Assembly: GCA_013265495.1 (NCBI GenBank)
Contig: MU057552.1
Location: 143,740 to 163,739 of the forward strand
Direction: 5' to 3'
DNA: 20,000 nt
Origin: Vicugna vicugna
Taxonomy: Eukaryota
The position numbers and the translations under genes were made by a program. The notes under the pieces are model-generated. The model searched no databases and had not been told where the DNA came from. It saw only the letters and a list, made by a program, of their open reading frames with translations. Of this stretch, positions 1,271 through 14,616 are shown piece after piece. Positions within the stretch are counted from its first letter, which is position 1. Every line of letters starts with the position of its first letter.

Positions 1271-1761
1271 TAAATATTTTCAGTTAATTTTATTCCATAC
1301 TGGGTAGATTCAAAAGAGTAGAAAATATATTAAAGCTGTCTCCCAGTTTAAGGAAAAGAAAATAACTGTTACCCACAAAGTACTATGTTGAATTTCATCC
1401 TCTCACTTTACACTCTAGAAGTAACAACTACAATAAATACTGATTTTTTAACTTTTTTTATTGAGTTATAGTCATTTTACAATGTTGTGTCAAATTCCAG
1501 TGTAAAGAACAATTTTTCAGTTATAACAGAACATACATATATTCACTGTCATATTATCTTTTGCTGTGAGCACCACAAGATCCTATATATATTTCCCTGT
1601 GCTGCACAGCACAATACTATTTATCTATTCTACATTTTGAAATCCCACTTTGTCCCTTCCTACCCCCGTCCCCCTGGCTACCTCAAGTTTGTACTCTATG
1701 TCTATGAATATATTTCTGTTTTGTATTTATGCTTCGTTTTTGTTGTTGTTGTTGTTGTTTT

Positions 1762-4700
1762 TTAGATTCCACATATAAGTGATTTCATGTGGTATTTTTC
1801 TTTCTCTTGCTGGCTTACTTCACTTAGAATGACATTCTCCAGGTGCAAACACGTTGCTGCAAAAGGCATTACGTTGTCGGTTTTTATGGCTGAGTAGTAT
1901 CCCATTGTATAAATATACTACATCTTCTTTATCCAGTCACCTGTTGATGGATATTTAGGCTGTTTCCATGTCTTCACTATTGTAAATAGTGCTGCTATGA
2001 ACATTGGGGTTCAGGTGTCGTTTTGAAGTAGAGTTCTTTCTGGATATATGTCCAGGAGCGGGATTCCTTGGTCATACAGTAAGTCTATTCCTACTCTTTT
2101 GAGGAACCTCCATACTGTTTTCCACAGTGGCTGCACCAAACTGCATTCCCACCAGCAGTGTAGGAGGGCCCCCCTTTCTCCACAGCCTTTCCATCATTTG
2201 CCATTTGTGGATTTTTGAATGATGGCCATTCTGACTAGCTTGAGGTGATACCTCATTGTAGTTTTGATTTGCATTTCTCTGATAATTAATGATATTGAGT
2301 ATTTTTTCTTGTTCCTATTGATCATTTCTATGTCTTCCTGGGACAATTGCTTGTTGAGGTCTTTTGCCCATTTTTGGATTGTGTTGTTTGATTGTTTCTT
2401 ATTAAGTCATATGAGCTGCTTATATATTCTGGAGATCAAGCCTTTGTTGGTTTCCTTTGCAAAAATTTTCTCCCATTCTGTAGGTCTTTTTGTTTTACTT
2501 ATGGTTTCCTTTGCTGTGCAAAAGCTTGTAAGTTTCATAAGGTCCCATTTGTTTATTCTTGATTTTATTTCTATTGCTTGAGATGACTCTTCTAAGAGAG
2601 CATTTTTGATATGCATGTCAGATAATGTTTTGCCTATATTTTCTTCTAGGAGGTTTATTTTATCTTGTCTTATGTTTAAGTCTTTGATCCATTTTGGGTT
2701 GATTTTTGTGTACAGTGTAAGGGAGCATTCTAGCTTCATTTCTTCACATGTTGCTGTCCAGTTTTCCCAACACCACTTGCTGAAGAGGCTGTCTTTTTTC
2801 CATTGTATATTCTTGCCTCCTTTGTCCAGGTTGAGTTGACCAACTGTTTCTGAGTTCATTTCTGGGCTCTCTATTCTGTTCCATTGATCTACATGTCTGT
2901 TCTTGTACCAATACCATGATGTCTTGATGACTGCAGCTCTGTAGTATTGTGTGAAGTCTAGGAGAGTTATTCCTCCAGGCTCTTCCTTTCTCTTCAGTAA
3001 TGCTTTGGCAATTCTAGGTCTTTGATGGTTCCATATAAATTTTATTATGCTTTGTTCTAGTTCTGTGAAGTATGTTCTGGGTAATTTGATAGGGATTGCA
3101 TTAAATCTGTAGATTGCCTTGGGCAGTGTGACCATTTTCACAATATTGATTCTTCCAATCAAAGAACATGGGATATCTTTCCATTTTTAAGAGTCTTCTT
3201 TAATTTCCTTCATCAATGGTTTATAGTTTTCTGTGTATAATTCTTTCACCTCCTTGGTTATATTTATTACAGTGTATTTTATTACTTTGGGTGCTATTTT
3301 AAAGGGGATTGTTTCTTTAGTTTCTTTTTCTGTTGATTCATCATTAGTGTAAAGAAATGCAACTGATTTTTGAAAGTTAACCTTGTCACCTGCTACCTTG
3401 CTGAATTCTTTAAACACATCTAGTAATTTTTTGTGGACCTTTTAGAGTTTTCTATATATAGTAATGTATCATCGGCATATAATGACACTTTTATGTCTTA
3501 TTTTCCAATTTGGATCCCTTTTACTTCTCTCTCTTTCCTGATTGCTGTGGGCAGGACTTCCAAGACTATATTGAATAAGAATGGTGATATTGGACAACAT
3601 TGTCTTGTCCCAGATTTTAGTGGGAAGCTGTTGTGTTTTTCACCATTGAGTTCTATGCTGGCTGTAGGTTTGTCATATATAGCTTTTATTATGTTGAGAT
3701 ATGTTCCCTCTATACCCACCTGGGTGAGAGTTTTTATCATAAATGGGTATTGAATTTTATCATAAGATCTTTCTGCATCTATTGAGATGATCATGTGGTT
3801 TTTGTCCTTTGTCTTGTTGATGTGATGTATTACATTTATTGGTTTGCATATGTTGAAACATCCTTATGTCCCTGGGATGAACCCCACTTGTTCATGATGT
3901 ATAATCTTTCTTATGTGCTGTTGGATTCTATTTGCTAGTATTTTGGTAAGGATTTTTGCATCTGTGTTCATTAGTGATACTGGTCTATAATTCTCTTTTT
4001 TTGTGGTTTTGATATCAGGGTAATGGTGGTTTTGATATCAGGGTAATGGTGGCTTCATAGAATGAGTTTGGGAGTTTTCCCTGTTTTTCAGTCTTCTGGA
4101 AGAGTTTGAGAAGGACTGGTATGAGTTCTTTGTATGTGTGGGAGAATTCCCTGGTGAAGCCTTCCGGTCCTGGAATTTTATTAGTAGGGAGGTTTTCTAT
4201 TGCTAATATGATTTCATTTCTAGTGATTGCTTTGTTCAAGTGGTCAGTTTCTTCTTGATTGAGTCCTGGTAGACTGTATGTTTCCAGAAACTTGTCCATC
4301 TCTTGTATGTTATCCATTTTGGTTCCATACATTTTTCATTATATTCTTGTATGATATTCTGTATTTCTATGATATTTTTTGTAATTTCTCCATTTTCCTT
4401 TCCTATTTTGCTTATTTGTGCTCTTTATTTTTTCTTTGTGAGTTTGACCAGAGGTTTGTGGATTTTATTTACTCTTTCAAAAAAGCAGCTTTTGGTTTGA
4501 TTGACATTTTTCTGCTTTTTTAAAATCTCTATTTTATTTATTTCCTCCCTGATCTTTATTATTTCCTTCCTTCCGCTGACTTTTGGGTGTTTTTGCTCTT
4601 CTTTTTCTTGTTCTTTTAACTGGTGGATTAGACTGTTTTTTCTTCTTTTATGAGGAAGGCCTGCATCACCCTAAACTTCCCTCTTAGCACTGACATTGCT

Positions 4701-5556
4701 GCATCCCATAAGTTGTGTGTGGTTGTGTTTTCATTTTCATTTGTCTCAGGGTATTTTTTAATTTCAACTTTGATTTCCTCATTGACCCATTTTTTTTAAT
4801 AGCATGTTGTTTAATCTCCATGCTTTCCTTTTTTTCTTCTTTGTTTCTCTGTAGTTGATTTCTAGTTTCATGGCATCGTGGTCAGTAAAGATGCCTGAGA
4901 TAATTTCTATCTTAAAATACTTGAGGCTTCTTTTGTGCCCAAGTACATGATCAATCCTAGAAAATGTTTCATGCACACTTGAAAAGAATTTGTATCCTAT
5001 TGTTGGGGGGCATAATGCTCTGAAAATATCCACTAAATCTAATTTTTCTATTGTACCATTTAGTTTCTCTGTTACCTTATTTATTTTCTGTCTGGAAGAT
5101 CTGTCTAGTGATGATAATGCGGTGTTAAAATTTCTGACAATGATTGTATTCCCATCAATATCCCCCTTATCTCTGTTAGTAGTTCTTTTAAGTACTTAGG
5201 TTCTCCTATTTTGGGTGCATATATATTGATGATTATAATATCCTCATCTTGTATTACTCATTTAATCTTTATAAAATGTCCTTATTTAACTTTATGGCCC
5301 TTGTTTTAAAGTGCATTTTGTCTGAAATCAGTACTGTTACACCTGCTCTTTTGGCTTTTCCATTTGCATGGAATATCCTGTTCCATCCTTTCACTCTCAA
5401 TCTATATGTGTCCTTCTCCCAAAAGTGTGTCTGTTTTATGCAGCATATTGAAAGTTCTTGCTTTATTATCCAGTCTGCCACTCTACATCTTTTGACTGGA
5501 GCATTTAGTTCATTAAAATTTACTGTAATTAATAATAGATCAGTGTTTATTTGTAT
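1762..5556 (-). pseudogene. Decayed L1 ORF2 (endonuclease / reverse transcriptase), broken by frameshifts and stops
   Basis: Start-equivalent position at about 5556 (ATA CAA ATA AAC ACT, aligning to the MAINT-type N-terminus with ATG lost). Ends ...EKYHMKSLICGI* with stop at 1764-1762. Span about 3.8 kb, as expected for full ORF2, but split into many short ORFs in different frames. Confidence 0.92.
4003..4052 (+). repeat. 23-bp perfect tandem duplication inside L1 ORF2
   Basis: GTGGTTTTGATATCAGGGTAATG at 4003-4025 and 4026-4048, followed by GTGG. Confidence 0.95.
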
Positions 5557-5824
5557 TTTGAACTTATTTTTGCATTTGATTTGGTATTTCCTCTTTGCTC
5601 CATTCTTCTTCCTTTTGTGGCTTGGCAATTTTCTTTTGTATTATCTTGGATTGTGTTTAGTTTTTGTGAGTCCCTTGTAAGTTTTTGACTTGTGGTTACC
5701 CTTTTTTGTAAGTCTATTAACTTATTACTGTAACTGTGTGTACTAAATAGATAGTAATATAATCTCAAACCCATCCTACAGAGATTAAAAAAAATTTTAC
5801 ACAAAAGAAAGAAAAGAAAATACT

Positions 5825-6652
5825 CAGAGAAATGCAAATCAAAACTACAATGAGGTATCACCTCACACCATCAGAATGGCCTCATTCAGAAATCCATGAA
5901 TGACAAATGTTGGAGAAGCTGTGGAGAAAGGGGAACCCTTCAATACTGCTGGTGGGAATGCAGTTTGATGCAGCCACTATGGAAAACTGTGGAGATTCCT
6001 CAAAAGACTAGGAATAGACTTAACATATGACCAAGGAATCCCACTTCTGGGCTTGTATCCAGAAGGAAATCTACTTCAGGATGACACCTGCACCCCAATG
6101 TTCATAGCAGCACTATTTACAAAAGCCAAAGCATGGAAACAGTCTAAATGTCCATCAACAGGTGACTGGATAAAGAAGATGTGGTATATTTATACAATGG
6201 AATACTACTTATCCATAAAAACTGACAACATAATGCCATTTGCAGCAACGTGTTTGCACCTGGAGAATGTCATTCTAAGTGAAGTAAGCCAGAAAGAGAA
6301 ATGAAAATACCATATGAGATCGCTCATTTGTGGAATCTTAAAACAAAAACAAAAACAAACAAACAAACAAAAACAAAGCATAAATACAGGACAGAAATAG
6401 ACTAACAGACAGAGAATACAGACTTGTGGTTACCAGGGGGGTGGAGGGTGGGAAGGGATAGATTGGGATTTCAAAATTGTAGAATAGATAAACAAGATTA
6501 CACTGTATAGCACAGAGAAATATACACTCACAGAGAATGTGACAGTGAATGTGTATATGTCCATGAATGAGTGAATAATTGTGCTGAACACTGGAATTTG
6601 ACGCAACATTGTAAAATGATTATAAACCAATAAAAATGTTAAAAGAAAAGAG
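5825..6652 (+). mobile_element. 5'-truncated LINE-1 3' end nested in the host L1 in opposite orientation
   Basis: Encodes ORF2 C-terminal motifs (CTPMFIAALFTKAK.WKQ.KCPS, WIKKMWYIYTMEYY). Has 3'UTR, AATAAA at 6629-6634 and an A-rich tail. Flanked by a 12-bp direct repeat AAAGAAAATACT (5813-5824 and 6653-6664). Confidence 0.95.
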
Positions 6653-6664
6653 AAAGAAAATACT

Positions 6665-7308
6665 TCATATTTTCTTGCTTCCCTTTCCCACTCTTAAAGA
6701 TTTAGAAGTCCTCTTTTACAATTTTGTTTTTATTGCATTTGTAAAGCATGGTGGTTATCACCTTTCTGGTTATGAGTTTCTCATTTTTGTAGCATCCTGC
6801 TTCTTTTCTATTTAGAGCAGACTTATCAATTTTTTTTTATCATGGGTTTAATGTTGATAAACTCTTTGAGTTTTTGCTTGTCTGTGAAGATCTTTATCTC
6901 TCCTTCTATTCTAAATGATTGCTTTGCTGGATATAGTATTCTAGGCTGCATTTTTTTTTCATTCAGGACTTTCAATATATCTTGCCACTCCCTTCTGGCC
7001 TGTAGTGTTTGTGTAGAGAAATCTGCTGAGAGCCTTAAGGGGTTCCATTGTAACTCTCTCTTTGTTTTCCTCTTGCCTGAAGGCATTTAGGATCATTTCT
7101 CTATCCTTGACTCTGGCCAACTTGATTAGGATATGTCTTGGTGTGTGTCTGTTTGTGTTCTCCCTGTTTGGCACCCTCTGATCCTCCTGAACTTGGATAT
7201 CTGATTCCTTCTTTAGGTTTGGGAAGGTTTCAGTCATACTTTCTTCAAATACCTTTTCATTCCCCTTTGTTCTTTCTTCCCCTTCTGGAGCCCCTATTAT
7301 GTATAGAT
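6665..7308 (-). mobile_element. LINE-1 host element continued: inter-ORF spacer and C-terminal half of ORF1
   Basis: Minus-strand ORFs give ORF1p RRM/CTD motifs: TPRHILIKL, RLSADFSTQTLQARREWQDILKVL, QPRILYPAK.SFRIEGEIK.FTDKQKLKEF. Confidence 0.93.
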
Positions 7309-7589
7309 TTTTTAAAAATTTTTTATTGATTTATAATCATTTTACAATGTTGTGTCAAATTCCAGTGTTCAGCACAATTTTTCAGTCATTCATGGTCATA
7401 TACACACTCATTGTCACTTTTTTTCTCCGTGAGTTATCATAACATTTTGTGTATATATCCCTGTGCTATACAGTGTAATCTTGTTTATCTATTCTACAAT
7501 TTTGAAATCCCAGTCTATCCCTTCCCACCCTCCACCCCCCTGGTAACCACAAGTCTGTATACTCTGTGAGTCTATTTCTGTCCTGTATC
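7309..7589 (-). mobile_element. Short LINE-1 3'UTR/polyA fragment abutting the truncated 5' end of the host L1
   Basis: T-rich tail, then TTTTATTGATTTATAATCATTTTACAATGTTGTGTCAAATTCCAGTG; a close reverse-complement match to about 6384-6640. Confidence 0.92.
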
Positions 7590-8020
7590 CATTTTTAATT
7601 AGGAAGAAGAGCATGTTCCATTTACCACCTGGGGAAAGTGTATACCTATAACACTTTATGCAAGTGCTCTTTTTCTGGGTAAGAACCTGCCACAGACTTT
7701 TTAAAATCTAATGTGAAATGCTGAGAAAACTGAAAGTCAAGCTGGGAACTATGTAGTCTCATAGAGGAAGCTGTTTCCGGAGAACATCTGTGCCAACACA
7801 GGGAGCCACTCTGGAAGTTCCACAGTGTCTTCTGCTCACAGTGCTTCCCCCAATTCTTTTCACCTCATTTGTTCAAGTCAGATCAGTGGTTTAGGATTCT
7901 TCAGGGTCTGATTAAGAGAACAGAACGAGGCACTAAGAATTCTAAAATTTTCCAAGAGTAACAACAAAGGTAAAATGTCTAAGAATAGCCTAACCAAAGG
8001 ATAATAGGAACTATCAAAAT

Positions 8021-11924: not shown

Positions 11925-12149
11925 GTCCAGATGACCATTGCTTCAGTTATTGGGATCATGGTCTACGGACTCTCAGTGTTGATTGTAATTTCTGCAAAAC
12001 TTCCCAAGCCTGAATGGAAGAGACCCAATCCAGTAGTACCTTACTGTGCAGATTGGCCATGCCCATCACTGCTTCCCTCATCAGTTTTATCATCCTCATG
12101 ACCCTGAAAGCCATATATGAGAAAGTGGCAATCACAATGACTGACTCTG
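11925..12149 (+). pseudogene. ANO6: ANO6/TMEM16F-like pseudo-exon (about human exon 13), 225 bp
   Basis: cag| acceptor and |gtaagc donor. Conceptual translation VQMTIASVIGIMVYGLSVLIVISAKLPK-(fs)-LNGRDPIQ*YLTVQ-(fs)-MAMPITASLISFIILMTLKAIYEKVAITMTDS matches recalled ANO6 ILLIIASVIGIIVYRLSVFIVFSAKLPKNINGTDPIQKYLTPQTATSITASIISFIIIMILNTIYEKVAIMITNF. Apparent -2 nt near 12009, TAG at 12034-12036, +1 nt near 12054. Confidence 0.92.
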
Positions 12150-13205
12150 GTAAGCTCCTCCTGCAGCTGAAGTCATTTCTACGCCACTTTTAGAACCAGG
12201 TCAAAACAGAGACTGTATCTTTTAGGCACTTCAATTCCAGTATATTACAGTCTTTAGAAAACTTCAAGTGTATACCTATTTCTCTAGCCTATATGAGAAG
12301 TTAACTAGCTCCAGCTTTGCATTAGTAAAAAGAACAAAGGAAGCATTAGAATGTCCAAGCTGTGTGTAAACAGGTCAGTGTTGAATAATAAATTCAATTA
12401 CATTACATCACGTTCCCTATTGTTGAAAATAAATAGTCTCTTTATTGCAAATAAGTGGAAGAGGGTCGTGGTTCCAGTGGCAGATTTGCTTGTGTGTTAC
12501 GGAGAGGACAAGTAATCACAGTGTTATGTGTCTTCCCCCAATGCTGTTCCTGTTAGTGTAGTTCCATTCTCATTATCTATAGCTTCTATAATAAATGTTT
12601 CTTCTCTCTGGCTTGTATCCCAGCCAGCAGCTTAGTGGCCCAAGTGCTTCCCACACGTGGCACGTGGCTGGGTCGTTCTCCCAGTGGTTTGCTCAGTAGT
12701 CATCTTCTGAGAACACTAAGACCATTTCAAATTCTGAACTAGGAGGATGACCCGTTTTATGTTACCCAATTTCTTCTAGCAAGTTGCCCCGTGTTTTGTT
12801 TGTTTTCTTTGATAGTCCTACTTTCCTGCCCTTCAGGGAGAAAAGAGAATATCATTTAGCAGGATATTCAAACTAGTTTTCTGTCAGCTTACACCTGACA
12901 GGGGACATTTCTTGCCATTGGATACTGTTGTGCTTATAAATTTTAAGGAACTGCTGACTTTTTTTTTTTTTTTGCCTTGTGGGATATTGCATTCACAGTG
13001 GGAGAAACTCTTAAAACAGAGTGTACACTTGGAATTAACATAGTAACTATGTTAAGGAATTCACAACAGCTTAAATGAAAACAATGTGAACTGTGTATAT
13101 ATATATACATATTTACCATGTTAACTCATGTGTCTGTGCCTTTGATTAGGGTCTCAAAGCCGTTCACAGTTTTACAGACTTACCTTTTCTTTATTCTAGC
13201 TGCAG

Positions 13206-13374
13206 AGCTCCCAAGGACCAGACTGACTGTGAGAACAACCCAGCCATGAAGGTGTTCTTGTTCCAGTTTATCAACTACTACTCTTCGTGTTTCTAAATCG
13301 CATTCTTTAAGGGCAGATTTGTGACTTATCCGGGAGATCCGGTGTATTGGCTGTGAAAATACAGAAATGAAGAG
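13206..13374 (+). pseudogene. ANO6: ANO6-like pseudo-exon (about exon 14), copy 1, 169 bp
   Basis: Polypyrimidine tract and tgcag| acceptor, |gtgtga donor. ELPRT-(fs)[49 protein letters not shown], with TAA at 13294-13296 and TGA at 13354-13356. Confidence 0.95.
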
Positions 13375-13552
13375 GTGTGAATACAGCTTTGTGTTCTGAC
13401 AGTCTAACCTGTTTCATGTTTTCTCTTAGTTGCCCAATGAAGAGTGTCTTTACTGTCTGTTCCTTAGATTTTATTTAGGCATAAAATAATGACTTTATTT
13501 CATGTTAGAGCTATCTAAAATTTAAATGAGAGTTTTCTTTCTAATATTCCAG

Positions 13553-13623
13553 TCTGACCCAGGTGGCTGTCTCCTTGAACTGATGACACAGCTGACAATA
13601 ATCATGGGAGGACAGTCCATCTG
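13553..13623 (+). pseudogene. ANO6: ANO6-like pseudo-exon (about exon 15), copy 1, truncated at the duplication junction
   Basis: ccag| then [23 protein letters not shown]; breaks inside the Trp codon and continues into duplicated intron sequence. Confidence 0.93.
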
Positions 13624-13823
13624 AACTCTTAAAACAGAGTGTACACTTGGAATTAACATAGTAACTATGTTAAGGAATTCACAACAGCTTAAATGAAAAC
13701 AATGTGAACTGTGTATATATATATACATATTTACCATGTTAACTCATGTGTCTGTGCCTTTGATTAGGGTCTCAAAGCCGTTCACAGTTTTACAGACTTA
13801 CCTTTTCTTTATTCTAGCTGCAG

Positions 13824-13992
13824 AGCTCCCAAGGACCAGACTGACTATGAGAACAGCCAAACCATGAAGGTGTTCTTGTTCCAGTTTGTCAATGACTACT
13901 CTTCATGTTCCTACATCACATTCTTTAAGGGCAGATTTGTGACTTATCCAGGAGATCCGGTGTATTGGCTGTGAAAATACAGAAATGAAGAG
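13824..13992 (+). pseudogene. ANO6: ANO6-like pseudo-exon (about exon 14), copy 2, 169 bp
   Basis: ELPRT-(fs)[50 protein letters not shown]. Shares the 1-nt deletion and the TGA with copy 1 but lacks the TAA. Confidence 0.95.
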
Positions 13993-14168
13993 GTGTGAAT
14001 ACAGTTTTGTGTTCTGACAGTCTAACCTGTTTCATGTTTTCTCTTAGTTGCCCAATGAAGAGTGTCTTTACTGTCTGTTCCTTAGATTTTATTTAGGCAT
14101 AAAATAATGACTTTATTTCATGTTAGAGCTATCTAAAATTTAAATGAGTTTTTTTTCTGATATTCCAG

Positions 14169-14266
14169 TGTGACCCAGGTGGCTGTCTCCTTGAACTGAT
14201 GACACAGCTGACAATAATCATGGGAGGACAGTCCATCTGGAATAACATACAAGAGGTGTTACTTCC
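14169..14266 (+). pseudogene. ANO6: ANO6-like pseudo-exon (about exon 15), copy 2, complete 98 bp with mutated donor
   Basis: [33 protein letters not shown] matches the anoctamin pore-region motif; followed by ATGAGT instead of GTGAGT. Confidence 0.95.
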
Positions 14267-14271
14267 ATGAG

Positions 14272-14355
14272 TACTAAGTCATGTGATCTTGGGGTGAGAA
14301 CGGCCCACCCATCCAAGTCATTTTCCTGCATTCCCATCTCTAAAACAGGGGAGAC
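14272..14355 (+). mobile_element. Possible MIR fragment
   Basis: TACTAAGTCATGTGATCTTGGGG..TTCCCATCTCTAAAACAGGGG resembles the MIR core. Confidence 0.45.
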
Positions 14356-14616
14356 TGTCTGCTTATTAAAGGTCTCCAGATAAGATGATCCAGCCAACAG
14401 TGTAAACGTACCTGCTGTTTAATAATTATGCTTAAATACCTTCCTTTTAATGTTTAACTTAAATCCCCAAGTGCTATAGTTTCTGTTTATTAGCCCATCA
14501 CTGGGGACTGACTGATAAGAGCCCTTTGAGTGATGGCCCTTGTTGGGTCCATGATCTAATGTTTTCCACAAATCCCCACAACTTTCTCCTCCTTTTATAC
14601 ATGCATTTAAAATATG

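Follow-up and report, generated by a model that had tools for sequence, protein, structure and literature searches.

How can two copies of a short gene fragment, lying head to tail, be identical over most of their length and differ densely in a few patches? This question is posed by two ANO6-like units found in the window (the whole 20,000-nt stretch of DNA analysed here), which were examined with respect to their origin, the distribution of their differences and their relationship to other copies of the gene.

An unprocessed ANO6 pseudogene fragment

The locus comprises at least four exons of ANO6 and represents a dead, unprocessed piece of that gene. The open part of the exon in the second unit (B) matches residues 545-588 of mouse TMEM16F/ANO6 (best PDB match: Anoctamin-6, E-value about 1e-17), the match to Anoctamin-1 being much weaker (3e-8), which agrees with the assignment to ANO6 made in the original prediction. 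A vole anoctamin (P0008) aligns to four exons, in order and on the + strand, the aligned parts of the two upstream ones being 7603-7674 and 11925-12145. The exons, one of which is present complete in both units, are as follows:

7603-7679, + strand: furthest upstream of the ANO6 exons found, with both an AG and a GT site and an amino acid identity of 58% over 24 residues
11925-12150, + strand: upstream ANO6 exon, frameshifted, with a stop
13206-13374, + strand: dead ANO6 exon, copy A, with a 1-bp frameshift near the start, TAA at 13294 and TGA near 13354
13824-13992, + strand: dead ANO6 exon, copy B, with the frameshift and TGA as in copy A
14169-14266, + strand: next ANO6 exon, complete in B and cut short in A, followed by ATGAGT in place of the expected GT donor

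The homology is accompanied by retained introns: the four ordered exons have AG/GT sites, with one donor apparently lost (the one after exon 14169-14266, presumably dead). Disabling mutations, namely frameshifts and stops, are present in two exons. Both units carry derived changes relative to ANO6, as had been proposed. The exon at 7603-7679 is located directly to the right of an L1 end and lengthens the fragment by 4 kb upstream of the other three exons.

Two adjoining units and their differences

Global alignment of 13006-13623 with 13624-14239 revealed 16 substitutions and one 2-bp indel in total, and it reproduced the difference positions reported in the original prediction. The units adjoin each other head to tail, with the following features:

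13006-13623, + strand: unit A, 618 bp, comprising an intron end, the ANO6-like exon, a 178-bp intron and 71 bp from the start of the following exon
13624-14239, + strand: unit B, 616 bp, running on unbroken into the remaining exon (to about 14266)
13623/13624, no strand: junction, blunt, without microhomology and without N, leading from mid-exon to mid-intron
13229-13332, + strand: diverged patch 1, 104 bp with 12 substitutions, corresponding to 13847-13950 in B, a putative conversion tract
13528-13554, + strand: diverged patch 2, a 2-bp indel and 3 substitutions, largely within the polypyrimidine tract, corresponding to about 14145-14170 in B

The blocks 13006-13228 and 13555-13623 are identical in A and B, a lone substitution (13387) is located between the patches, and the substitutions of patch 2 fall at 13537, 13543 and 13554, while the GA indel can be placed ambiguously, at any site in 13528-13532. 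Outside the patches the units differ at 1/487 bp (95% CI 0.005-1.1%), compared with 12/104 (6-20%) and 4/27 inside them. The substitutions comprise 12 transitions and 4 transversions and include three CpG decays, all in B; this spectrum looks evolutionary rather than error-like, and sequencing error as the origin of the differences was ruled out by the 12:4 ratio. Unit A retains 4 CpG dinucleotides in 13229-13345 and B just 1 in 13847-13963, numbers too small for significance. The TRF program did not report the duplicate unit because its period is >500.

The original prediction held that uniform decay would be unable to produce such patches, and the statistical analysis leads to the same view. 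With 17 events placed at random (200,000 placements), the Sawyer-type sum of squared identical runs indicated that the differences are clustered beyond chance, as expected for gene conversion (p=0.0019). The same placements yielded p=0.008 for the longest identical run and p=9e-5 for 12 events within 104 bp, the latter with the size of the interval picked after viewing the data. A two-state model exceeded the uniform one by 8.6 log-likelihood units, with three extra parameters set by grid search.

A third copy and the genealogy of the patches

If the patches were acquired by recombination with diverged paralogs, further ANO6-like copies should exist, as the original prediction pointed out, and one was found. 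P0002 is an 88-residue ORF on a 1208-bp NCBI contig, known here as protein only, which has the frameshift, the stop codon and three changed residues in common with both units. It reads through the equivalent intron, in which the frame is changed relative to A/B, into the frameshifted exon, and ends at the TGA of A and B. Where A and B are identical, P0002 differs from them in 7/50 codons (4/32 + 3/18). In patch 1 the codon differences are 6/35 between A and P0002, 6/35 between B and P0002 and 9/35 between A and B; because the three copies are about equidistant there, patch 1 appears to be at paralog distance. So, judging from the sequences compared, A and B would be allele-like (1 change in 487 bp) apart from patches that are apparently diverged like paralogs, and the best explanation of the locus is that it is probably one of several ANO6 copies in the lineage.

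The genealogy of the three copies, determined at the protein level, pairs A with B in the flanks, while in the tract two sites (13238, 13243) pair A with P0002 against B, opposite to the flanks, and one (13300, a CpG site) pairs B with P0002. Inside the patch both units retain the marks of the pseudogene family at 13252, 13315 and 13324, which argues that the donor was a pseudogene and not intact ANO6, and the latter was ruled out as the donor of the tract on these grounds. The codon at 13241 encodes Pro in A, Gln in B and Leu in both P0002 and intact ANO6, that is, two hits in one codon.

P0002 was the only other broken ANO6 copy among 41 matches, with no more among the database proteins compared; the representative search reported intact anoctamin exons only among the matches listed (150 of 311), and the short-protein search with P0001 as a query gave no match. 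A donor matching either patch variant was not found among the protein matches or in the metagenome scans (23-mer: 0 matches; 17-mer: 32 matches, all due to chance, the best of 26 bp). Another protein, P0155, is a spliced in-frame ANO6 fragment that has two unusual residues in common with P0002 and one with unit B; neither of the two shared with P0002 occurs in any of 32 further proteins compared.

Origin of the patches

We propose that the patches probably arose by gene conversion, as short tracts derived from other pseudogene copies of ANO6. A and B would be two allele-like versions of one 0.6 kb sequence that split very recently, and one of them would have gained two tracts, one of about 100-150 bp and the other of about 30 bp, via non-allelic gene conversion from an older pseudogene paralog, roughly 6-10% diverged, with B as the likelier recipient of tract 1. 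That conversion was responsible, and in which direction it went, we infer from the sequences. The predicted tract sizes fit the published mean length of 250 bp (CI 63-1000; 10.1101/135152), which counts in favor of conversion; the same source indicates that conversion slows with the divergence of the copies, so that donors diverged by 6-10% are expected to convert slowly. Interlocus gene conversion is common in segmental duplications, according to PMC10172114. Against this explanation, no donor was found in the searches described above, it requires two separate tracts, P0002 matches neither patch variant (and may come from another species, as an ortholog and not a paralog), and the grouping of A with P0002 depends on two sites and is opposed by 13300. 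Of the two possibilities raised in the original prediction, a mosaic formed with diverged paralogs fits best, while an older pair homogenised by conversion is less likely.

An old tandem, dating from the paralog radiation, in which conversion or unequal crossing-over between the two units homogenised them in part while the patches escaped, appears unlikely to us. It would account for the derived changes that each unit carries and for the paralog-like distance within the patch with no need of an outside donor, it is compatible with the grouping of A with P0002 in the patch, and adjacent copies convert readily, tracts of 69-223 bp being within the published range. However, it demands that three stretches (223, 195 and 69 bp; 79% of the unit) were corrected recently, while two patches escaped. 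Moreover, the identity reaches both breakpoints (probability 0.04 for 20 unconverted bases at both ends with an 8% background), although this argument is weak, since tracts can extend to an end.

A consensus or polishing chimera, in which reads of several collapsed paralogs were mixed and neither unit is a real molecule, is in our opinion quite improbable. It would be in line with the multi-copy family indicated by P0002 and with the word content of the sequencing runs, since 20 of the 24 listed runs contain part of 12700-14500 and none contains half of the sampled words. However, each unit has private patch changes, absent from P0002 and intact ANO6, which majority polishing should have erased, and copies 10% apart normally draw their own reads. 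As to the runs themselves, 14 of them (DNA or unrecorded kind; 8 studies, 5 organism codes) contain 0.27-0.40 of 140 words, which corresponds to a difference of 3-4%, if uniform, and 6 further ones (5 RNA, 1 guessed RNA) contain 0.08-0.19 of 140 words; these fractions are not taken as evidence on copy number, species or transcription.

Exon versus intron

The locus had been described as having identical introns and a divergent exon, which is true of patch 1, as it is wholly exonic, but not of the units as a whole: 4/17 events lie in the intron (the indel and positions 13387, 13537 and 13543; 13/17 are exonic), and the following exon in A is equal to B in 69/71 bp. The exon parts 13333-13374 and 13555-13623 exhibit no change between A and B. 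The exon excess reached p=0.002 (Fisher) with the events treated as independent; this value is not reliable, because the 17 events are non-independent (tracts). Of 618 circular shifts of the cluster pattern, 18% gave at least 13 exonic events, and the chance that a 104-bp tract is placed wholly inside the exon is 13%. Exon-specific divergence was rejected, with p=0.18 once the changes are counted as tracts. The exon limits used in the statistics were 13205-13375, while the splice sites indicate 13206-13374, with all counts unaffected.

The changes between A and B in the exon are neutral. Patch 1 contains 9 nonsynonymous or nonsense and 3 synonymous changes; our recount confirmed this split and its interpretation as approximately neutral, the observed 9/12 being in agreement with a neutral expectation of 0.72-0.81 for the replacement share (p 0.48-1.0). 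Divergence maintained by selection should exhibit an open frame and an excess of replacements, and we found stops, a frameshift and the neutral proportion instead; selection on the exon was ruled out by the neutral ratio and the dead frame. An exon diversified by selection or directed change (through neofunctionalisation, or through RNA-templated rewriting limited to exons) is therefore very hard to credit, since the exonic position of patch 1 and the naive exon excess that would speak for it are outweighed by the frameshift and TGA in both units, the TAA in A, the neutral share of replacements, the mostly intronic patch 2 and the results of the circular shift and chance placement given above.

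Placement of the two units

The assembly caveat expressed in the original prediction stands, and it deserves more weight than was given to it there: the side-by-side placement of A and B may be an assembly error. It is conceivable, at somewhat less than even chances, that two haplotypes or near-identical copies, with an overlap of ~617 bp, were placed one after the other by the assembler; the patch would have blocked the merging of the overlapping copies. The whole window contains 0 N bases and the copies are not separated by an assembly gap, which counts against such a join; gaps are the usual mark of false duplications, with read-depth gaps resulting from wrong gap-filling also counted (PMC9516828). 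That the tandem is a real young duplication is slightly less likely again; two rare events would be needed in one 0.6 kb.

Relationship to known systems

The processes behind the patchy duplicate are ordinary and already known. As in interlocus gene conversion (PMC10172114; 10.1101/135152), tract-size clusters of differences are found in near-identical duplicates and are neutral; on the other hand, the implied donor divergence (6-10%) is high for frequent conversion and the unit has just 0.6 kb. As in false heterotype duplications (PMC9516828), adjacent copies are allele-like save for a dense patch of differences and the junction is blunt; unlike in those, there is no N gap between A and B. 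The locus also resembles unprocessed pseudogene fragments in mosaic duplication blocks in that the introns and splice sites are kept, several disabling changes are present, and at least one other copy shares them. Our literature search found no publication on camelid ANO6 pseudogenes, and ANO6 is mentioned 0 times in the main text of an alpaca genome paper (PMC6598621), the supplementary copy-number tables of which could include the locus.

Whether it reflects neutral movement of sequence within a dead gene fragment or a slip of the assembly, the locus is of little consequence alone, apart from the warning that in this lineage pseudogene copies can confound the reads and copy-number calls for ANO6. 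For the locus to gain importance, its copies would have to exchange sequence with working ANO6, and the residues that P0155 shares with P0002 and unit B are a hint of such exchange. We speculate that there could be a transcribed multi-copy family of ANO6 pseudogenes that swap short tracts among themselves and with the working scramblase gene, a highly improbable scenario.

Genomic surroundings

Analysis of the neighborhood revealed a nest of pieces at 1444-7588, which we take to be L1-like, including a long minus-strand element. The nest also contains a second, inverted L1-like copy (about 5820-6650; 87% over 381 nt). A short L1-like end at 7308-7588 is 97% complementary over 119 nt to the inverted copy/element of the nest. 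A perfect 23-bp tandem duplication is located at 4003-4052, within the L1-like element.
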